Shown one piece after another: positions 1 to 9,592 of a DNA stretch of 13,234 nucleotides. Position 1 is the first letter of the stretch, and every line of letters begins with the position of its first letter. The notes under the pieces are model-generated. The model had not been told where the DNA came from and ran no database searches. It saw only the letters and a program-made list of their open reading frames with translations. Location of the stretch: the IMG/VR virus record IMGVR_UViG_2850778813_000008, one strand, 5' to 3'. The DNA comes from a virus. Lineage: Duplodnaviria; Heunggongvirae; Uroviricota; Caudoviricetes. Position numbers and translations under genes: made by a program.

Positions 1-846
1 CTACGATAACCGCGCATTCAACATGGCTATCTGTTCGTCGTTCATGTCATCAATCCACATACCGTAAATTTCATACACCATTTGCGCAGTTTCATGCCCC
101 ATCTGGCTGGCTATAAATGCCGGGTTCGCTCCTGCCGTCAACAGCCAGCAGGCAAAAGTATGTCGCGTATGGTACGGATTACGGCGGCGAATACCAGCAC
201 GTTTTACTGCTGCATTCCATCTTGCACCCAAACTGCTTACCGAGTAATAAGGTTTCTGTTTTTCGTTACACACCCTGGGCATGAAAACAAAATGCAGTTT
301 TTGCTTTTCAGTTCTGCCGTACTCCCGATGATAAAAAGTGATTTCGCTTTTGCGATGATGCCCGGTCAGTTTGTATTGCTCCTTCAGTGCTTCAAGAGCC
401 GGCTGCAGTAATGTTACCGTCCGGATCCCGGCATTTGTTTTTGGGGGACCGAACATATCAAGTATCGTCAGGTTTCTTCTGACATTCACAATTCCCTTCT
501 CGAAATCCACATCCTCCCACGCCAGAGCTGCCAGTTCCCCGTGACGAAGCCCGGAGTAAACGGCAAATTTCCACAAGTTTTGGCTCTGTCCTTTTTCACT
601 TTCCATTAATGCATTGAATTCTGTTTTAGATAACGGGTCAGGTTTTATTCTGTTTCGCTGTAATTTTTTTACTCCTTCAAATGGTTTGGTTGATATAAAT
701 CCCGACTGATACGCAAAACGTAACAACGAACAGAGCAGGGCGATATAGTTATCAACTGTGCGCACGATTCTTCCTTTTTTGTTGGATCTTGGATTATCTA
801 GGTAAAGCGTTTCTCCATGCAGCAGTTCATTCCGGTAGTTTAAGAT
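1..846 (-). pseudogene. Phage-type tyrosine recombinase (integrase), 5'-truncated by IS600; C-terminal catalytic domain intact
   Basis: Minus-strand frame open from the IS600 boundary (846) to a stop at 1-3; C-terminal region has tyrosine-recombinase box II signature HTRHTFACWLL...MGHETAQMVYEIYGMW and upstream RHGELAALAWEDVD. Track ORF 1..765 starts at an internal GTG; the frame continues upstream without stops to the IS600 left end, so the N-terminal part is missing. Confidence 0.7.
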
Positions 847-1241
847 TGAGGTAGCCTGAGTTTAACGGACACTCCTTCCTGAAATAGAATGGCATCAGAA
901 GGAGCTAATAATGAGCAGAAAAAACCAACGTTACTCTAAAGAGTTCAAAGCCGAAGCTGTCAGAACGGTTCTTGAAAATCAACTTTCGATCAGTGAAGGC
1001 GCTTCCCGATTATCCCTTCCTGAAGGCACTTTAGGACAATGGGTTACCGCCGCCAGAAAAGGGCTCGGTACTCCTGGTTCCCGCACGGTGGCTGAACTGG
1101 AATCTGAAATTCTGCAACTGCGTAAGGCGTTAAATGAAGCTCGCCTTGAGCGAGATATATTAAAAAAAGCAACAGCGTATTTTGCACAGGAGTCGCTGAA
1201 AAATACGCGTTAATCGAACAATGGCGACAACAATTTCCCAT
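847..1241 (+). mobile_element. IS600 (IS3 family), 5' fragment only (left IR plus orfA); interrupted by IS629
   Basis: Starts TGAGGTAGCCTGAGTTTAACGGACAC, identical to the left end of the complete copy at 6035; sequence follows the complete copy until ~1241, then IS629 left IR begins. Junction ambiguous over 4 nt (TGAA shared). Confidence 0.8.
911..1213 (+). CDS. IS600 OrfA (IS3-family transposase N-terminal HTH protein)
   Basis: 100-aa ORF MSRKNQRYSKEFKAEAVRTVLENQ... recalled as IS600 orfA; differs from copy at 6099-6401 at two residues (R/C, A/V). Confidence 0.85.
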   Translation: MSRKNQRYSKEFKAEAVRTVLENQLSISEGASRLSLPEGTLGQWVTAARKGLGTPGSRTVAELESEILQLRKALNEARLERDILKKATAYFAQESLKNTR

Positions 1242-1295
1242 TGAACCGCCCCGGGAATCCTGGAGACTAAACTCCCTGAGAAAGAGGTAAACAGG

Positions 1296-1622
1296 ATGAC
1301 TAAAAATACTCGTTTTTCCCCCGAAGTCCGTCAGAGGGCGATTCGTATGGTTCTGGAAAGTCAGGGCGAATATGACTCACAGTGGGCGGCAATTTGTTCC
1401 ATTGCCCCAAAGATTGGCTGTACACCGGAGACTCTGCGTGTCTGGGTACGCCAGCATGAGCGGGATACCGGAGGCGGTGATGGCGGGCTCACCACCGCTG
1501 AACGTCAGCGTCTGAAAGAGCTGGAACGTGAAAATCGTGAACTGCGCCGCAGTAACGATATCCTTCGCCAGGCTTCCGCTTATTTTGCGAAGGCGAAGTT
1601 CGACCGCCTCTGGAAAAAGTGA
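1296..1622 (+). CDS. IS629 OrfA
   Basis: 108-aa [36 protein letters not shown]..., HTH-type IS3-family orfA; ends W-K-K-stop over an A-rich run just before orfB. Confidence 0.8.
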
Positions 1623-2509
1623 TGCCACTGCTGGATAAGCTGCGTAAGCTGTACGGGGTCGGACCGGTATGCAGTGAACTACATATTGCCCCGTCAACGT
1701 ATTACCACTGTCAGCAACAGCGACATCATCCTGATAAACGCAGTGCCCGTGCGCAGCGCGATGACTGGCTGAAGAAAGAGATACTGCGTGTATACGATGG
1801 GAATCATCAGGTATACGGTGTGCGTAAAGTCTGGCGTCAGTTGTTACGGGAAGGTATCAGAGTGGCCAGATGCACTGTGGCACGTCTCATGGCGGTTATG
1901 GGACTTGCCGGTGTTCTCCGGGGTAAAAAGGTCCGTACGACCATCAGCCGGAAAGCCGTTGCCGCAGGCGACCGCGTAAACCGTCAGTTCGTGGCAGAAC
2001 GACCTGACCAGCTGTGGGTGGCTGATTTTACTTACGTCAGCACATGGCAGGGCTTCGTCTATGTGGCGTTCATCATTGATGTGTTTGCCGGATACATCGT
2101 GGGGTGGCGGGTCTCATCGTCCATGGAAACGACATTCGTGCTGGATGCTCTGGAGCAGGCGTTATGGGCCCGTCGACCGTCCGGCACGGTCCATCACAGT
2201 GATAAAGGTTCTCAGTATGTATCGCTGGCCTACACACAGCGGCTTAAGGAAGCCGGATTACTGGCATCAACAGGAAGTACAGGCGACTCGTATGACAACG
2301 CGATGGCGGAGAGCATCAATGGTCTTTACAAAGCGGAGGTAATACACCGTAAGAGCTGGAAAAACCGTGCAGAAGTGGAACTGGCCACACTCACGTGGGT
2401 GGACTGGTATAATAATCGACGATTGCTGGAAAGGCTGGGCCATACTCCTCCGGCAGAAGCAGAAAAAGCTTATTATGCTTCCATCGGAAACGATGATCTG
2501 GCAGCCTGA
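1619..2509 (+). CDS. IS629 OrfB (DDE transposase catalytic domain; normally expressed as OrfAB by -1 frameshift)
   Basis: 296-aa ORF in -1 frame relative to orfA, overlapping its stop; contains DDE-type region (...WVADFTYV..., ...HHSDKGSQY..., ...YDNAMAES...). Confidence 0.85.
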
Positions 2510-2551
2510 GTTCACAGATAAAACACTCTCCAGGAAACCCGGGGCGGTTCA

Positions 2552-3449
<898 letters not shown>

Positions 3450-3596
3450 TGGAGCACCTGTGTTGTTCTGAGGTGAGCATATCACCTCTGTTCAGGTGGC
3501 CAAATTCAGTGTGCCACTTCAGCCCGAAAGGGCGGGGAGCAGTCACACATCTGTTTCCGATAGCCCCGTTCTAATGCTACACTCTTTGATATTTTT

Positions 3597-4283
3597 ATGA
3601 CCCCAATAAACATATTTATGACAGTTGCTGATTTCAAACGGCCCAAATTGGAGCTCCCAAACGGGGCAAACAAACTACTACTGCACTCTTGCTGTGCTCC
3701 ATGTTCCGGTGAGGTGATGGAGGCGCTTCAGGCCTCGGGAATCGACTACACCATCTTTTTCTACAACCCGAACATTCATCCTCAGAAAGAGTATTTAATT
3801 CGTAAGGATGAGAATATTCGCTTTGCTGAACAACACGGCGTGCCGTTTATTGATGCTGATTACGACACAGACAACTGGTTTGAACGAGCCAAAGGAATGG
3901 AATGGGAGCCCGAACGAGGGATCCGTTGCACCATGTGTTTTGACATGCGTTTTGAGCGGACAGCGCTGTACGCCGCTGAAAATGGTTTCAGTGTGATCAG
4001 CAGTTCACTGGGCATTTCACGCTGGAAAAATATGCAGCAGGTTAACGACTGTGGGCGGCGAGCCGTCGCGCATTATCCGGGCATGGTGTACTGGGATTAT
4101 AACTGGCGCAAGCAGGGAGGCTCGTCCCGTATGATTGAAATCAGCAAGCGCGAAAAATTCTATCAGCAGGAATATTGTGGCTGTGTGTATTCTCTGCGCG
4201 ATACCAATCTACACCGCAAATCTCAGGGACGCCCTCTTATCAAAATTGGTCAACTCCACTACGGTAAAGAAGAGAAGGAGTGA
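3597..4283 (+). CDS. QueH-like protein (DUF208 / epoxyqueuosine reductase family), tentative
   Basis: 228-aa ORF with [11 protein letters not shown] motif near N-terminus plus downstream CTMCF and EYCGCVY cysteine motifs, as recalled for the QueH/DUF208 family. Start uncertain (ATG 3597 or 3618); no strong SD at either. Confidence 0.5.
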
Positions 4284-4304
4284 TTTTATGGGGCACCTTT
4301 CTGA

Positions 4305-4334
4305 TTGATTTCATATTGGCGAGGTAAGTAGAAT
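4305..4334 (+). promoter_or_regulatory. Candidate sigma70 promoter for the hok transcript (TTGATT-N18-TAGAAT)
   Basis: TTGATT at 4305-4310 and TAGAAT at 4329-4334; would place transcript start ~4340, just at the 5' fold-back element and ~170 nt upstream of hok. Confidence 0.35.
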
Positions 4335-4338
4335 GACT

Positions 4339-4352
4339 GCGGGTGCTTGAGG
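4339..4352 (+). promoter_or_regulatory. hok mRNA 5' element complementary to the 3' end (fold-back inhibition-type pairing partner)
   Basis: GCGGGTGCTTGAGG (4339-4352) is near-perfectly complementary to CCTCAACGCACCCGC at 4723-4737 (one extra G), ~385 nt apart, flanking the hok ORF. Confidence 0.45.
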
Positions 4353-4510
4353 CTATCTGCTTCAGGCATGAACACTAAAAGGCAGATAGAGAAAAGCCCC
4401 AGTTAACATTACGCGTCCGGCAAGACGCTTAACATTAATCTGAGGCCAATTTCATGCTTTGCACATGTAGGTTAGCCTCTTACATGCCGAAAGGCAAGGA
4501 GAAGCAGGCT

Positions 4511-4666
4511 ATGAAGCAGCAAAAGGCGATGTTAATCGCCCTGATCGTCATCTGTTTAACCGTCATAGTGACGGCACTGGTAACGAGGAAAGACCTCTGT
4601 GAGGTACGAATCCGAACCGGCCAGACGGAGGTCGCTGTCTTCGTAGACTACGAATCCAGGAAGTAA
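4511..4666 (+). CDS. hok: Hok/Gef-family type I toxin (HokD/RelF-like)
   Basis: MKQQKAMLIALIVICLTVIVTALVTRKDLCEVRIRTGQTEVAVFVDYESRK: N-terminal TM helix and conserved LCE..R.G..EVA.F..YE tail; from memory matches E. coli HokD/RelF except the last ~7 residues. AGGAGA SD-like sequence 9 nt upstream. An in-frame upstream ATG at 4454 gives the 70-codon track ORF (mok-like position). Confidence 0.8.
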   Translation: MKQQKAMLIALIVICLTVIVTALVTRKDLCEVRIRTGQTEVAVFVDYESRK

Positions 4667-4722
4667 GAGTGACCGGGCGGGGAGCTGATCCCATCCCCGC
4701 CCACCTCTGATGTGTCAGGCAT

Positions 4723-4737
4723 CCTCAACGCACCCGC
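4723..4737 (+). promoter_or_regulatory. hok mRNA 3' element complementary to 5' element at 4339-4352
   Basis: CCTCAACGCACCCGC pairs with GCGGGTGCTTGAGG; position just upstream of the terminator matches hok-family mRNA architecture. Confidence 0.45.
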
Positions 4738-4743
4738 ACTTAA

Positions 4744-4786
4744 CCCGCCCATCGCTGTGATCTCTCAGCGTTTCGGCGGGTTTTTT
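4744..4786 (+). terminator. Rho-independent terminator-like structure downstream of hok
   Basis: CCCGCC (4744-4749) pairs GGCGGG (4775-4780) with inner CGCTG/CAGCG helix, followed by TTTTTT (4781-4786). Confidence 0.45.
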
Positions 4787-4806
4787 GTTGTTTATTTCCG
4801 GTGAAT

Positions 4807-4834
4807 TTGATTCGCGCACCTTCGCAGATAGAAT
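4807..4834 (+). promoter_or_regulatory. Candidate sigma70 promoter (TTGATT-N16-TAGAAT) upstream of the 4916 operon
   Basis: TTGATT 4807-4812, TAGAAT 4829-4834; same hexamer pair as the candidate at 4305. Confidence 0.3.
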
Positions 4835-4915
4835 CGACTCACTTAAGTAGCGCGCAGGGAGAAGAGGGATGGACCCCGAACAGGGGAGAGCTATTTATCT
4901 GGAAGGATTCTGAAG

Positions 4916-5203
4916 ATGAAAATCGAAGAATTGCGTGAAATTTTTAGTGAAAATGGCCTCTATGCTGTGCGCGTTGAGAATGGAGCGATTGTCAGCCATT
5001 GCCGCATTAGATGTTTGCAATCTCAACAAAGGAAGAGCGGTGCTGTGTTATTTTATTTTTGTAATGGACTTCTGACGGACGGTTTTATTTTGCGTGAGGA
5101 CGAATTTGTCACATCATTACGGGTTTTGAAAGAGATTGGTTTTAAGGCTGGTTTTCTGCTTTTGCTGAAGAATAAACTCATCTACAATCTTGAGCAGGAT
5201 TGA
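4916..5203 (+). CDS. Hypothetical small prophage protein (95 aa)
   Basis: ORF with GAAGA upstream, overlapping the next ORF by 14 nt (translational coupling); occupies the position of rem in Qin-type prophages (positional inference only). Confidence 0.4.
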   Translation: MKIEELREIFSENGLYAVRVENGAIVSHCRIRCLQSQQRKSGAVLFYFCNGLLTDGFILREDEFVTSLRVLKEIGFKAGFLLLLKNKLIYNLEQD

Positions 5204-5840
5204 ACTCCTGCTGTGTAACACCGTGCCACCGGAGAAAGCCGATGGCCATATACAACTGATCAAACAAACCTCTTCCGGATTACTTCTCCCGGCGACGCCG
5301 GAGAGTTGCGATTTTCTGCATCAAATCAAAACAGGTGAGTGGATACACGCAGACTTTAAGCGTGTGCGTAACTACGCATTCCACAAGCGTTTTTTCAAAC
5401 TCCTGCAACTGGGATTCGATTACTGGACTCCGATCGGTGGGGCGATTACGCCTCGCGAACGAGAACTGGTATCAGGCTTCGTTGAGTACCTGTGCGAATC
5501 AGTAGGCCGGGAACATACGCCAGCTCTGAGCGAAGCCGCAGAGCAATATCTGAATACAGTTGCGACACGCAGAACCCGAGATACAGCATTGCTAAAGTCG
5601 TTTGAGGCTTTCCGCGAGTGGGTAACCATTCAGGCCGGATTTTACACCGAGCATATTTATCCGGACGGTAGCCGTGGGCGCAGGGCGAAATCCATCTCGT
5701 TTGCGAATATGGACGAAACCGAGTTTCAGCAGGTTTATAAATCTGTGCTGAATGTACTGTTGAACTGGATCCTGTTCCGTAAATTTTCCTCTCCGGAACA
5801 AGTCGAAAATGTGGCCGCGCAGCTACTGGAGTTTGCGTAA
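5190..5840 (+). CDS. Prophage nin-region protein, possibly DUF1367 family (tentative)
   Basis: 216-aa ORF, stop overlaps next start (TAATG at 5838-5842); family assignment from weak recollection and gene order, not verified. Confidence 0.45.
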   Translation: MSRIELLLCNTVPPEKADGHIQLIKQTSSGLLLPATPESCDFLHQIKTGEWIHADFKRVRNYAFHKRFFKLLQLGFDYWTPIGGAITPRERELVSGFVEYLCESVGREHTPALSEAAEQYLNTVATRRTRDTALLKSFEAFREWVTIQAGFYTEHIYPDGSRGRRAKSISFANMDETEFQQVYKSVLNVLLNWILFRKFSSPEQVENVAAQLLEFA

Positions 5841-6034
5841 TGGTGGATTTACGTAAAGCGGCGCGGGGGCAGATGTGCACCGTCAGAATTCCTGGCTACT
5901 GCAATCACGATCCGGAAACGTCTGTGCTGGCGCATTACCGACTGGCGGGTAAAAACAAGCGATTACACCAAAGAAGAATTACGCCTGATGCATGCAGAAG
6001 GTGTTTTTCGCACGCAAGAAATCTGGAGAAAGGA
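5840..6034 (+). pseudogene. ybcO-like (DUF1364) gene remnant: internal ~100-bp deletion/frameshift, then interrupted near its 3' end by IS600
   Basis: N-terminus MVDLRKAARGQMCTVRIPGYCNHDPETSVLAHYRLAG resembles recalled YbcO N-terminus; after RLAG homology moves to another frame (...EGVFRTQEIWRKEGYL-stop resembles the YbcO C-terminal tail) and that frame's TGA overlaps the Q-like ATG once IS600 is removed. Stop of track ORF 5840..6037 is the TGA of the IS600 left IR. Confidence 0.45.
6032..6034. repeat. Target-site duplication GGA (left) of IS600 copy 2
   Basis: GGA immediately left of IS600 IRL; identical GGA at 7299-7301 right of IRR. Confidence 0.6.
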
Positions 6035-6098
6035 TGAGGTAGCCTGAGTTTAACGGACACTCCTTCCTGAAATAGAATGGCATCAGAAGGAGCTAATA

Positions 6099-6401
6099 AT
6101 GAGCAGAAAAAACCAACGTTACTCTAAAGAGTTCAAAGCCGAAGCTGTCAGAACGGTTCTTGAAAATCAACTTTCGATCAGTGAAGGCGCTTCCCGATTA
6201 TCCCTTCCTGAAGGCACTTTAGGACAATGGGTTACCGCCGCCAGAAAAGGGCTCGGTACTCCTGGTTCCCGCACGGTGGCTGAACTGGAATCTGAAATTC
6301 TGCAACTGCGTAAGGCGTTAAATGAAGCTTGCCTTGAGCGAGATATATTAAAAAAAGCAACCGTGTATTTTGCACAGGAGTCGCTGAAAAATACGCGTTA
6401 A
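6099..6401 (+). CDS. IS600 OrfA
   Basis: 100-aa ORF, near-identical to 911-1213; A-rich slippery run (ATTAAAAAAAG) near 6350-6357. Confidence 0.85.
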   Translation: MSRKNQRYSKEFKAEAVRTVLENQLSISEGASRLSLPEGTLGQWVTAARKGLGTPGSRTVAELESEILQLRKALNEACLERDILKKATVYFAQESLKNTR

Positions 6402-6436
6402 TCGAACAATGGCGACAACAATTTCCCATTGAAGCG

Positions 6437-7255
6437 ATGTGTCAGGTATTTGGTGTATCCAGGAGCGGTTATTACAACTGGGTACAGCATGAACCCTCAG
6501 ACAGAAAACAAAGTGATGAGCGGCTAAAACTGGAGATTAAGGTGGCACATATCCGCACTCGCGAAACATATGGAACCCGGCGGCTCCAGACGGAGCTGGC
6601 AGAGAATGGCATCATCGTTGGTCGTGACCGACTGGCACGTCTTCGTAAGGAGCTAAGGCTACGCTGTAAGCAGAAACGCAAGTTCAGAGCGACTACGAAC
6701 CCGAACCACAATCTGCCAGTTGCGCCAAATCTGCTGAACCAGACGTTCGCTCCTACAGCACCAAATCAGGTCTGGGTGGCGGACCTGACGTATGTTGCCA
6801 CACAGGAGGGATGGTTGTACCTCGCTGGCATCAAAGATGTTTATACGTGCGAAATTGTCGGCTACGCCATGGGAGAGCGCATGACAAAAGAGCTGACAGG
6901 TAAAGCCCTGTTTATGGCGCTCAGGAGCCAGCGCCCACCTGCCGGGCTAATCCACCACTCTGATCGAGGTTCACAGTACTGCGCATACGATTACCGGGTC
7001 ATACAGGAGCAGTCTGGTCTGAAAACATCAATGTCGCGTAAAGGTCACTGTTACGACAACGCTCCGATGGAAAGCTTCTGGGGAACGCTGAAAAATGAGA
7101 GCCTGAGCCACTATCGTTTTAATAACCGGAATGAAGCCATCTCAGTAATACGGGAATACATTGAGATTTTCTACAATCGTCAGCGTCGTCACTCTCGTCT
7201 GGGGAATATCTCCCCGGCAGCCTTCAGGGAAAAATATCATCAGATGGCTGCTTAA
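6437..7255 (+). CDS. IS600 OrfB (DDE transposase domain)
   Basis: 272-aa ORF with ...WVADLTYV..., ...HHSDRGSQY..., ...YDNAPMESF... motifs. Confidence 0.85.
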   Translation: MCQVFGVSRSGYYNWVQHEPSDRKQSDERLKLEIKVAHIRTRETYGTRRLQTELAENGIIVGRDRLARLRKELRLRCKQKRKFRATTNPNHNLPVAPNLLNQTFAPTAPNQVWVADLTYVATQEGWLYLAGIKDVYTCEIVGYAMGERMTKELTGKALFMALRSQRPPAGLIHHSDRGSQYCAYDYRVIQEQSGLKTSMSRKGHCYDNAPMESFWGTLKNESLSHYRFNNRNEAISVIREYIEIFYNRQRRHSRLGNISPAAFREKYHQMAA

Positions 7256-7298
7256 AAAAAGAACAAATGGTAGTGTCCGCTATTGCCAGTACACCTCA

Positions 7299-7301
7299 GG
7301 A
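7299..7301. repeat. Target-site duplication GGA (right) of IS600 copy 2
   Basis: See 6032-6034. Confidence 0.6.
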
Positions 7302-7310
7302 AGGTTATTT

Positions 7311-7865
7311 ATGATTTACCCAACAAATACAGGCAAAAGCGGGGAACACCTTCGTCTCACCACGCTGGAAAGTGTCTGGATTCAGGGAAAACTGCGCATG
7401 TGGGGGCGCTGGTCGTATATTGGCGGCGGTAAGACGGGGAATATGTTCAACCAGTTGTTGGCCTCTAAAAAGCTGACAAAAACGGCAATTAACGAGGCGC
7501 TCCGGAGGATGAAAAAAGCAGGTCTGAACAAGTCTGAACTTGAGGCTTTTTTGCGGGATATGATTAACGGTAAGCAAAAGAGCTGGCTGGCGCATTGTAC
7601 TGATGCAGAGGCGTTATGTATTGATCGGGTCATAAGTGAGGTGCTGGCAGAGCATCCAGGATTGATTAGCGTCCTTCGGCAACGGTATGAGGGGCGGGGG
7701 ATGACCAAACGCAAAATGGCTGAACTGCTGAATGATGCACACCCGAAATGGAGTTTAAGAACCTGTGAAAGACGCATTGAGCATTGGCTAAAGGTGGCAG
7801 AATTTATTTTGTACAAACCAATGGTTATGGCTTTTGGTATAGAGAAAAAAGTTATTGCTTTTTGA
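7311..7865 (+). CDS. Putative late-gene antitermination protein Q-like (184 aa)
   Basis: ORF from ATG 7311 containing LESVW...WGRW, resembling the LE.WG.W motif recalled for Q-family proteins; followed by terminator and tRNA cluster as in lambdoid Q-PR'-tR' regions. Track ORF 7161..7865 starts inside IS600 and is rejected as the native start. Confidence 0.5.
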   Translation: MIYPTNTGKSGEHLRLTTLESVWIQGKLRMWGRWSYIGGGKTGNMFNQLLASKKLTKTAINEALRRMKKAGLNKSELEAFLRDMINGKQKSWLAHCTDAEALCIDRVISEVLAEHPGLISVLRQRYEGRGMTKRKMAELLNDAHPKWSLRTCERRIEHWLKVAEFILYKPMVMAFGIEKKVIAF

Positions 7866-7942
7866 CGTAAAAACTGCTTCAATTCTTGTACGCTTCGCAA
7901 AGCTGTACCGCGAGGCGAATAGCAGACATGGACATTTGAAAG

Positions 7943-7966
7943 AGCCCGCTTTATGCGGGTTTTTTT
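7943..7966 (+). terminator. Rho-independent terminator (tR'-like) downstream of Q-like gene
   Basis: AGCCCGC-TTTAT-GCGGGT hairpin followed by T7 run (7960-7966). Confidence 0.6.
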
Positions 7967-8054
7967 ATACCTGAAAAACGGCACAGGACGTTAAACGTGC
8001 TGGTGGTCAGATGAGTTTGCAGATGTGATGACATATGGTTATTATTCTGCCTCC

Positions 8055-8131
8055 GGCCCTTTAGCTCAGTTGGTCAGAGCGAGCGACTCATAATCGCCAG
8101 GTCGCTGGTTCAAGTCCAGCAAGGGCCACCA
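8055..8131 (+). tRNA. tRNA with CAU anticodon, Ile2 (ileX/ileZ-like) by similarity; Met not excluded
   Basis: Hand-folded cloverleaf: acceptor GGCCCTT/AAGGGCC, anticodon loop CTCATAA (CAT at 8089-8091), T-loop TTCAAGT, 3' CCA encoded; resembles recalled E. coli ileX. Confidence 0.75.
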
Positions 8132-8132
8132 A

Positions 8133-8209
8133 CCACCACTAGCTCATCCGGATAGAGCATCAACCTTCTAAGTTGACGGTGCGAGGTTCGAGTCCTCGGT
8201 GGTGGGCCA
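8133..8209 (+). tRNA. tRNA-Arg (UCU)
   Basis: Acceptor CCACCAC/GTGGTGG, anticodon loop CTTCTAA (TCT at 8167-8169), T-loop TTCGAGT, CCA encoded; unusual C1-G72. Confidence 0.7.
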
Positions 8210-8211
8210 GC

Positions 8212-8287
<76 letters not shown>

Positions 8288-8290
8288 TAT

Positions 8291-8351
<61 letters not shown>

Positions 8352-8423
8352 TGAAGTGGCACACTGAATTTGGCCACCTGAACAGAGGTGATATGCTCAC
8401 CTCAGAACAACACAGGTGCTCCA

Positions 8424-9592
<1,169 letters not shown>

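Follow-up and report, generated by a model that had tools for sequence, protein, structure and literature searches.

What interrupts the path between the ybcO-family gene and the Q-like gene of this prophage, how many separate events were involved, and what do they leave of Q? The window, i.e., the whole stretch of 13,234 nt that was analyzed (IMG/VR record IMGVR_UViG_2850778813_000008), was 100% identical to CP026814.1 (Shigella boydii / S. flexneri serotype 6 group), in which dbpA, ttcA, and int lie upstream of the locus and ABC-3 transporter genes lie downstream. The element is a lambdoid prophage in decay, and it occupies the Rac site (dbpA-ttcA-int) of a Shigella chromosome in this group. 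Only positions 3523-8350 of the window were prophage DNA, and inverted IS911 copies bracketed this segment. The early region and nearly all late genes were gone, with other insertion sequences in their place: IS fragments filled the interval from the integrase fragment to queH, where the intact Escherichia coli relative L001 has its repressor, cro, and replication genes. A second, truncated IS600 lay at 847-1240, and none of the four minus-strand ORFs of the region (144, 96, 200, and 79 aa) had a Pfam match. The locus is a case of IS-driven genome decay of the ordinary kind, without a new system. We hold the account as a whole (a decaying lambdoid prophage, an IS600 insertion with a GGA target-site duplication, a separate 83-bp loss from ybcO, and the consequences of both) to be highly probable, and nothing in the present analysis contradicted its structural part. 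The features on which it is built are listed below.

Coordinates of the features of the locus (positions of the window; L001 and L002 are intact relatives)
Feature	Positions	Strand	Details
DUF1367 / NinB-like gene, intact	5190-5840	+	Pfam PF07105, E 7.6e-94; PHROG 319; same order in L001 and L002
ybcO-family (DUF1364) gene, first 37 codons, original frame	5840-5950	+	identical to intact YbcO through ...HYRLAG
65-aa chimeric ORF	5840-6037	+	37 YbcO codons, 28 out-of-frame codons, stop
Scar of 83-bp deletion	5939-5949	+	11-bp imperfect direct repeat of which one copy, CGACTGGCGGG, is left
ybcO-family C-terminal part, +2 frame (RVKTSDYTKEELRLMHAEGVFRTQEIWRK)	5946-6034	+	matches residues 64-92 of 96 in the intact protein
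Target-site duplication, left copy	6032-6034		GGA
IS600 (IS3 family), complete	6035-7298	+	1264 bp, TGAGGT to ACCTCA
Promoter-like site, left inverted repeat	6050-6078	+	TTAACG-17-TAGAAT, consensus match only
IS600 orfA	6099-6401	+	100 aa, HTH_Tnp_1, open
IS600 orfB	6437-7255	+	272 aa, rve integrase core, open, -1 frame relative to orfA
Target-site duplication, right copy	7299-7301		GGA
Spacer GGAAGGTTATTT, IS600 to Q ATG	7299-7310	+	12 bp, compared with L002
Q-like gene (DUF1133 family), intact	7311-7865	+	184 aa, PF06576, PHROG 753
Hairpin plus T7 run	7944-7966	+	GCCCGC-TTTAT-GCGGGT-TTTTTT, approximately 80 bp past Q stop, fold -18.4 kcal/mol
Promoter-like site	8016-8045		directly 5' of first tRNA gene; from scan
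Three phage tRNA genes	8055-8287	+	anticodons CAT, TCT, TGT
Fourth tRNA gene, 3' end lost	8300-8350	+	IS911-family element begins at 8351

The order DUF1367-DUF1364-DUF1133-tRNAs-holin-lysozyme was conserved in intact relatives, and in four of them (L001, L002, L015, and L023) DUF1133 was followed by the hairpin with its T7 run, the tRNA genes, holin, lysozyme, and spanin. Of this arrangement from DUF1133 to the lysis genes, the window keeps only the leader and the tRNAs. Intact E. coli modules (CFSAN029787 and FDAARGOS_944) were 96-99.7% identical in nucleotide sequence over the matching segments and had the same gene order, ATGA overlap between the ybcO stop and the Q start, terminator, and tRNA cluster, but they lacked both IS600 and the 83-bp deletion and retained holin, lysozyme, spanin, and structural genes.

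The earlier note had described a complete IS600, and its coordinates agreed with ours. The termini were imperfect inverted repeats, with TGAGGT...CGGACACT at either end in inverted orientation; the element starts with TG and finishes with CA. An A7G slippery run was found within orfA (6350-6357), and the -1 frame was open across it. The copy shares with annotated E. coli and Shigella IS600 its length of 1264 bp, its termini, orfA and orfB, the A7G run, and the 3-bp target-site duplication. Compared with the annotated E. coli copy L011, it was of equal length and 99.4% identical, with eight substitutions and no indels; it differs from the known element in nothing essential. Seven of the eight altered amino acids, one of them changing N to H within the conserved GNCYDN stretch, and transposition activity of the copy is therefore uncertain. 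At least 80% of the IS600 query was covered in 2124 E. coli records, the annotation among the matches listed being IS600-family transposase. Some BLAST hits and the second IS600 copy extended the match by 5-19 bases to the left of position 6035; on inspection the extensions proved to be unrelated A/G-rich flanks, and the boundary was thus kept at 6035.

When IS600 and one GGA were removed, the flanks rejoined to ...GAAATCTGGAGAAAGGAAGGTTATTTATGATT..., which was identical to the uninterrupted site of E. coli CFSAN029787. Among complete E. coli genomes, 370 matched the 62-base rejoined site, 91 with an identity of ≥99%, and each of the matches listed spanned the DUF1364/DUF1133 gene junction. 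Because the rejoined site occurs in E. coli genomes with a single GGA, the GGA repeat is a true target duplication, and the reading of the locus as a simple IS600 insertion is borne out by this exact empty site. The possibility that the flanking GGA copies were native sequence, which the earlier note had raised against itself, was checked on intact loci; one GGA was present at the site, and the claim survived. The element lies in the final four codons of the ybcO-family gene and, as previously stated, ends 12 bp 5' of the Q-like ATG. One IS600 copy transposed into these last four codons, duplicating GGA and putting 1264 bp of IS between the ybcO-family gene and the Q-like gene.

The ybcO-family gene carries a lesion of its own. 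Alignment against the intact locus L001 showed one 83-bp gap, which lay between CGACTGGCGGG and CGACGGGCGGG, with the deletion junction somewhere in GGCGGG (5944-5949); of the 37 codons in the original frame, 35 are unambiguous and 2 lie within the repeat. The tail, RVKTSDYTKEELRLMHAEGVFRTQEIWRK(EGYL*), has shifted to the +2 frame, and its last four codons and stop resume after IS600 at 7302-7314. These results agree with the earlier observation that the first 35 codons are in one frame and the tail is in another, with the TGA at 7312-7314 overlapping the Q ATG. The note had deduced an internal deletion of approximately 100 bp; a separate, out-of-frame deletion was indeed found, but its size was 83 bp by alignment. 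It had also allowed that homologues might have no ybcO tail, but in the intact loci N-terminus and tail were both present and shared one frame, so that this objection failed as well. The 83 bp were lost separately from the insertion, through misalignment of two 11-bp imperfect direct repeats, which takes out residues 38-65 and shifts the frame. In the absence of IS600, the deletion would have made one continuous frame of the ybcO start and Q, with a predicted fusion product of 252 aa.

The frameshift makes a chimera of the 65-aa ORF, as had been proposed. The Pfam YbcO profile (PF07102, 92 positions) matched it over residues 3-39 and profile positions 2-38 only, compared with positions 2-91 for the intact relative, and its stop codon (TGA, 6035-6037) consists of bases 1-3 of IS600. 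The ORF was present on 14 contigs and has been deposited as 'bacteriophage protein [Shigella boydii].' Two reconstructed intact YbcO sequences had exact matches in the protein collection, on at least 1000 contigs each. In this locus ybcO is a pseudogene and does not provide a functional DUF1364 member.

The left junction and the deletion junction were identical in eight independent Shigella assemblies. The right junction was present in all five of these whose contig extends that far, including complete chromosomes, and in four more Shigella chromosomes (L014, L017, L019, and L020). Such identity of junctions across independent assemblies rules out an assembly artefact. Neither lesion was found in 5426 complete E. 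coli genomes, and neither junction had a match in JGI metagenomes. A search of species-representative genomes with the deletion junction returned one match, in a Coxiellaceae MAG, which was a chance 21-mer in dissimilar surroundings. The earlier note had called the ybcO-like gene already defective when IS600 arrived; that it was broken independently held up, but the order did not, given that all left-junction carriers have both lesions. No single-lesion allele was found. There was likewise no exact protein match for a YbcO'-Q fusion (the deletion-only form) or for an intact YbcO ending in IS-encoded ...KDEVA (the insertion-only form), and these two negatives are weak because an exact-sequence match was required. 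The flank to the left of IS600 was deleted or rearranged in three of seven Shigella chromosomes, whereas the right junction was kept in all seven. The IS600 insertion is old in this Shigella lineage, and its left side is still eroding by IS-mediated deletions.

By sequence comparison, the downstream gene is a member of the DUF1133 family, distantly related to the antiterminator Q of phage 21. We know of no activity or binding site for this family, and no experimental work on DUF1133 was found in the literature. Its protein matched PF06576 with 362 bits (E 4e-109; cut-off 23.1) and PHROG 753, 'anti-termination protein Q-like' (E 3e-81), whereas the match to PF06530 (Phage_antitermQ) was marginal (29.3 bits; cut-off 26). 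Phage 21 Q (PDB 6JNX/6P18; PF06530) gave a weak collinear match (E 3.6e-4 when a single sequence was used and 7e-5 when a profile was), with similarity at both protein ends, and its gene has a like position, directly 5' of the late promoter/terminator and the lysis genes; the relation is nevertheless very distant, and DUF1133 is the primary family of the window gene. An AlphaFold2 model from a 20-sequence alignment (mean pLDDT 55, pTM 0.40) was too poor for fold comparison. DUF1133 has been placed with Q through HHpred only (PMC8136144). The designation Q-like was retained, with the Pfam and PHROG matches, the phage 21 Q similarity, and PMC8136144 in its favor; the quuD and quuQ loci suggested as comparators were not, the gene being a DUF1133 member. 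The exact protein was found on 510 contigs.

What the insertion does to Q can be stated in part. The Q-like ATG natively overlaps the ybcO stop (ATGA), and Q is now uncoupled from ybcO in translation and physically cut off from the operon upstream. The Q reading frame and the terminator/tRNA block are intact, as is the native Shine-Dalgarno-like GGAAGG, which stays in place thanks to the GGA duplication. The earlier note had Q cut off from upstream prophage transcription. The loss of continuity was confirmed, but the prophage early region has been replaced by insertion sequences and fragments of them, so that upstream prophage transcription hardly exists. Q would be silent, or would be expressed at a low level by read-through of IS600 from the transposase promoter or from farther upstream. 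That Q expression would require read-out from IS600 is a reasonable supposition, and such read-through is plausible. The site at 6050-6078 is likely the transposase promoter, and within IS600 it is the sole candidate promoter for read-through into Q. Promoter and terminator scans report consensus matches, with the number of sites near the shuffled expectation; on the plus strand from 6035 to 7311, the scan listed no terminator-like sites. Because the lysis and structural genes under Q have already been deleted, the insertion would have had a small effect. An RNA hairpin between the IS600 right repeat (7276-7292) and early Q codons (7328-7344), enclosing the ribosome site, was predicted but was rejected as no better than shuffled sequence (z = -1.6; 12 of 200 shuffles folded equally well).

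Downstream of Q, the hairpin at 7944-7966 was 100% conserved in L001 and L002, and it was not among the sites of the simple scan. It is probably the terminator that Q would override. The three tRNA genes are all that is left 3' of Q; in L001 and L002 this cluster is again present, with DUF1133 on one side and the lysis genes on the other.

Three other explanations were weighed against insertion followed by ordinary decay. The junctions could stem from recombination between IS600 copies of different loci, or from misassembly, and in either case the GGA match would be a coincidence (1 in 64). IS600 copies are numerous in Shigella genomes, the E. coli copies L011 and L012 have no matching flanks, and the window itself holds the truncated copy at 847-1240; yet the flanks directly adjoin each other, with one GGA, in the 370 E. 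coli genomes and are identical in sequence to the rejoined window, and the left and deletion junctions recur in the eight assemblies, as does the right junction in each of the five long enough to include it, which makes this origin extremely unlikely. Insertion might also have switched Q on rather than off, through a hybrid promoter with an outward -35 in the IS600 right inverted repeat and the remainder in the flank. Other IS3-family elements are known to form junction promoters with an outward -35 from their right repeat, and TTGCCA at 7283-7288 does face outward. The scan gave no promoter at the IS600 right end, however, and the -10 candidates spaced by 16-18 bp (TTATTT, TATTTA, and ATTTAT) match TATAAT at only two or three of six positions. 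A transcript begun approximately 7 nt past such a -10 would start at approximately 7318, beyond the ATG at 7311, and could not encode full-length Q. With no acceptable -10 and the implied start past the ATG, this promoter was rejected as very unlikely.

The remaining explanation concerns what has been kept rather than how the junctions arose: a trickle of Q, made by IS600 read-through, would antiterminate past 7944-7966 into the phage tRNAs, and selection would keep the block. If so, selection for the tRNAs would account for an intact right junction and Q while the left side erodes. In keeping with this, seven of seven Shigella chromosomes had the right junction together with the tRNA block and an identical Q protein, and three of these had an altered left flank; positions 7298-8351 were 99.7% identical to an E. 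coli relative; the plus strand of IS600 had no terminator-like site in the scan; and the Q-like protein was strictly conserved, being identical to the allele on the 510 contigs. The loci were, however, picked by exact identity of the Q protein, so that conservation of Q among them was built into the search, and truncated forms of this Q allele (P0005, 130 aa, on a 4.68-Mb contig) occur in S. flexneri records. Moreover, the promoter-like site at 8016-8045 could serve the tRNAs without Q, and because it lies directly 5' of the first of them, they need not depend on Q; the fourth tRNA gene has already been destroyed by IS911. We regard selective maintenance of the block as very unlikely, and ordinary decay is the reading that we retain.

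Two published cases resemble parts of this history. Strain B44 of E. coli O26:H11 carries an Stx1 phage in which IS600 lies upstream of q, an arrangement associated with the loss of inducible Stx1 production; the authors of that study proposed that IS600, together with a cI/cro replacement, may abolish prophage-induction-dependent toxin production (PMC10042803). The same element thus likewise lies just 5' of a prophage late-gene antiterminator gene, but in another prophage and probably with another Q family. The B44 insertion has a measurable phenotype because the late genes are still present there, whereas the late region of the window prophage is gone. At the speG locus of Shigella boydii, nested IS911/IS600 insertions were followed by progressive strain-specific deletions (PMC3213128), a pattern that matches the variable left flank of IS600 in the window. 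It is a different locus, and its loss is of known benefit to the pathogen, whereas at the locus in the window no benefit is evident.

The practical value of these results lies mostly in annotation. The 65-aa 'bacteriophage protein' is a three-part artefact, made of the YbcO start, an out-of-frame YbcO tail, and a stop supplied by the IS, and pseudogene annotation is therefore due. The common right junction, combined with a variable left flank, is a possible marker of the lineage formed by the S. boydii / S. flexneri 6 group. The locus provides a clean, fully reconstructible case of insertion sequences dismantling a Shigella prophage; if the Q-tRNA block were expressed and useful, it would mean that an IS is able to sustain a piece of a phage regulatory circuit, which would be new.

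The element upstream of the Q-like gene was a complete IS600, as the earlier note had held: its ends, both frames and the E. coli matches agreed. Its termini were imperfect inverted repeats, with TGAGGT and CGGACACT as their common parts. At least 80% of the query was covered in 2124 records (complete E. coli genomes, BLAST), and every one of the IS600 matches listed was annotated as "IS3-like element IS600 family transposase". An annotated E. coli copy (L011) was of equal length and showed eight substitutions and no new stops. Some BLAST matches extended 5-19 bases to the left; the boundary was kept at 6035 because the flanks of four inspected copies were unlike, merely A/G-rich.

A match between three flanking bases has a chance of 1 in 64 and alone means little. 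Removal of IS600 and one GGA gave GAAATCTGGAGAAAGGAAGGTTATTTATGATTTACCC, the same as the uninterrupted sequence of E. coli CFSAN029787 (L002), which carries one GGA. A 62-base version of this empty site matched 370 complete E. coli genomes (91 at ≥99%), and all matches listed bridged the junction between the DUF1364 (ybcO-family) and DUF1133 (Q-like) genes. The empty site in E. coli thus settles the GGA question: the insertion was simple, with a GGA duplication, as had been proposed. The proposed distance of 12 bases between the right end of IS600 and the Q-like ATG (7311) was also found. In intact-gene terms, the insertion point was within codon 93 of 96, and the predicted effect on an intact YbcO alone would be a change of four terminal residues (EGYL to DEVA).

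When the rejoined window was aligned to an intact E. coli relative (L001), a single gap of 83 bp appeared, whose edges in the intact sequence were CGACTGGCGGG and CGACGGGCGGG (10 of 11 bases identical). The internal ybcO deletion suspected earlier is therefore real and separate from the IS, but shorter than the approximately 100 bp assumed. Edges of this kind are the mark of slipped misalignment or of recombination at short homologies, and the deletion is not IS-adjacent because approximately 85 bp separate it from the IS600 end. As 83 cannot be divided by three, the loss puts the tail in a different frame from the first 37 codons; the original frame was kept as had been described, over 35-37 codons rather than 35. 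Translation also bore out the tail in a second frame: the last codons and TGA (7302-7314) overlapped the Q start codon, just as they do in intact loci. The Pfam YbcO model matched only residues 3-39 of the 65-aa ORF but covered an intact 96-aa relative end to end. When the missing stretch was restored from either E. coli relative, both 96-aa proteins were found exactly in the protein collection, each in at least 1000 contigs. The 65-aa ORF was rightly called a chimera, and it has three parts because IS600 supplies its TGA (6035-6037, the initial three bases of the element). With IS600 removed, the frameshifted ORF continued in frame into Q (...NLEKG-RLF-MIYPTN...). The predicted product of an allele with only the deletion is thus a YbcO'-Q fusion of 252 aa, a point absent from the earlier note. 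The chimera and the Q-like protein were reported in one 90%-identity cluster (327 members, 40 of them inspected) though they have no common sequence, which may be no more than a clustering artefact or may point to such a fusion (deletion without IS) among the members.

Features of the locus, in window coordinates.
Feature	Position	Strand	Remarks
Second IS600, truncated	847-1240		same orientation as first; 300 nt reported at 99% identity; ends after 394 bp
IS3-family element	1241-2552		ALIL pseudoknot 1577-1693; cuts second IS600
IS911-family copies, inverted orientation	2552-3522 and 8351-9321		971 nt, 100% complementary; bracket 3523-8350
Epoxyqueuosine reductase QueH homologue	3597-4283		E 1.9e-65; adjoins IS911 end
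hok/sok type I toxin-antitoxin	4341-4666		apparently intact; Hok/Gef ORF 70 aa, 4454-4666; Rfam sok RNA 4341-4516, 116 bits
ybcO-family first 37 codons	5840-5950	+	original frame
Deletion scar	5939-5949		single leftover repeat copy
ybcO-family tail (RVKTSD...EIWRK)	5946-6034	+	+2 frame
GGA target duplication, left copy	6032-6034
IS600	6035-7298	+	1264 bp; start TGAGGTAGCC, end GTACACCTCA
Promoter-like site in left repeat	6050-6078	+	scan
IS600 orfA	6099-6401	+	100-aa HTH_Tnp_1 protein (Pfam)
IS600 A7G run	6350-6357	+
IS600 orfB	6437-7255	+	272-aa rve-domain protein (Pfam); -1 frame
GGA target duplication, right copy	7299-7301
Q-like gene	7311-7865	+	184 aa; full-length DUF1133, 362 bits
Hairpin and T7 run	7944-7966	+	absent from simple terminator scan list
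Promoter-like site TTTGCA-18-TATTAT	8016-8045	+	just ahead of first tRNA; consensus scan
Fourth phage tRNA gene	8300-8354		T-arm cut by IS911 at 8351; Rfam 31.5 bits

Besides DUF1133, the Q-like protein matched PHROG 753 "anti-termination protein Q-like" (E 3e-81) and, narrowly, Pfam Phage_antitermQ (29.3 bits, curated threshold 26). Among proteins of solved structure, its only relative was phage 21 Q (6P18 and 6JNX), at E 3.6e-4 in a single-sequence search and 7e-5 once a 20-sequence profile was used; the similarity was collinear at the two ends of the protein. The predicted structure (pLDDT 55) was too uncertain for fold comparison. In intact relatives, the DUF1133 gene was followed by the hairpin and T7 run, four tRNA genes, and then holin, lysozyme and spanin genes, which is the classical position of Q. 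These matches and the gene position justify the "Q-like" label, and a survey of Stx phages assigns DUF1133 as "Q antiterminator HHPred" (PMC8136144). The K-12 genes quuD and quuQ, suggested earlier as comparators, are of the wrong family. The leader after Q (7866-8054) was 100% identical in E. coli relatives, and nothing in it could be recognised by eye as a convincing late promoter or Q-binding site. The fourth tRNA in these relatives was Gly or Val.

The window was 100% identical to CP026814.1, and the locus was also present in CP000036.1, which we take to be S. boydii Sb227, and in CP026811.1. The latter is listed in a paper as S. flexneri 64-5500, serotype 6. The 65-aa ORF was deposited under S. 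boydii. The locus was flanked upstream by dbpA, ttcA and an integrase gene, presumably the Rac attachment region as in K-12, and downstream by ABC-3 transporter genes. Phage-derived DNA (queH, hok/sok, rem, DUF1367, the ybcO remnant, Q and tRNAs) was found only between the IS911-family copies, both of which point their left ends inward; the left copy is cut by another IS at 2552. From integrase to queH, L001 carried repressor, cro and replication genes; from the integrase fragment to queH, the window carried only the truncated second IS600, the IS3-family element and an IS911 fragment, so the early promoters normally driving Q are gone. The integrase gene adjoining the left end of the second IS600 was truncated in the window and full length in locus L007; approximately 400 bp were therefore lost there too. 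Beyond the truncated fourth tRNA were IS911, then IS66-family and more IS3-family elements, and thus the lysis and structural genes normally activated by Q are also gone. The hok/sok pair may help explain the persistence of the fragment. The QueH homologue was prophage cargo, found also in L001.

Neither IS600 at this site nor the 83-bp deletion junction was found in 5426 complete E. coli genomes. The left junction and the scar were identical in eight Shigella assemblies retrieved via the 65-aa ORF, and the five whose contig extends far enough had the right junction in common. Seven Shigella chromosomes were retrieved with the exact Q protein, and the right junction was identical in every one; the left flank was as in the window in four and differed in three. 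CP026807.1 lacked 922 bp directly at the left end of IS600, reaching into rem; CP162048.1 had the order int-IS600-Q, expected from recombination of the two direct IS600 copies; and in CP000036.1 another IS3-family element abutted the left end. Because the right junction is invariant and the left flanks vary, the IS600 insertion is a single old event in the lineage, with leftward erosion continuing. No allele with just one lesion was found by exact protein look-ups or in species-representative genomes and JGI metagenomes, and the order of events implied by "already-defective" in the earlier note found no support in these searches.

With IS600 between them, ybcO and Q are no longer translationally coupled through ATGA and no longer form a continuous operon; the GGA duplication preserves a ribosome-binding-like GGAAGG six bases ahead of the Q ATG. 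Terminator-like sites on the + strand were absent from the scan's list for IS600. Transcription of Q would come solely from read-through, from the IS600 promoter or the few upstream genes, and would thus be weak, if any. A hybrid promoter facing outward, with TTGCCA (7283-7288) as its -35, is unlikely to drive Q, given that no acceptable -10 follows and the implied start is downstream of the Q ATG. A predicted hairpin pairing the right repeat with early Q codons was no better than shuffled controls. In an O26 Stx1 phage, IS600 upstream of q was associated with loss of inducible toxin production (PMC10042803), which by analogy fits a polar, silencing effect on Q.

Novelty is confined to reading the IS600-Q-tRNA block as retained because read-through Q helps phage tRNA expression. 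We consider this very improbable: retrieval by the exact Q protein accounts for part of the conservation of Q, some alleles of the same Q are truncated, and the tRNAs come with a promoter-like site of their own. The earlier observation was confirmed, with corrections to the deletion size, the extent of the first frame and the source of the stop, and the accompanying interpretation was partly supported. The locus is a known element with known behaviour in a published genome, an instance of routine IS-driven prophage decay in Shigella.
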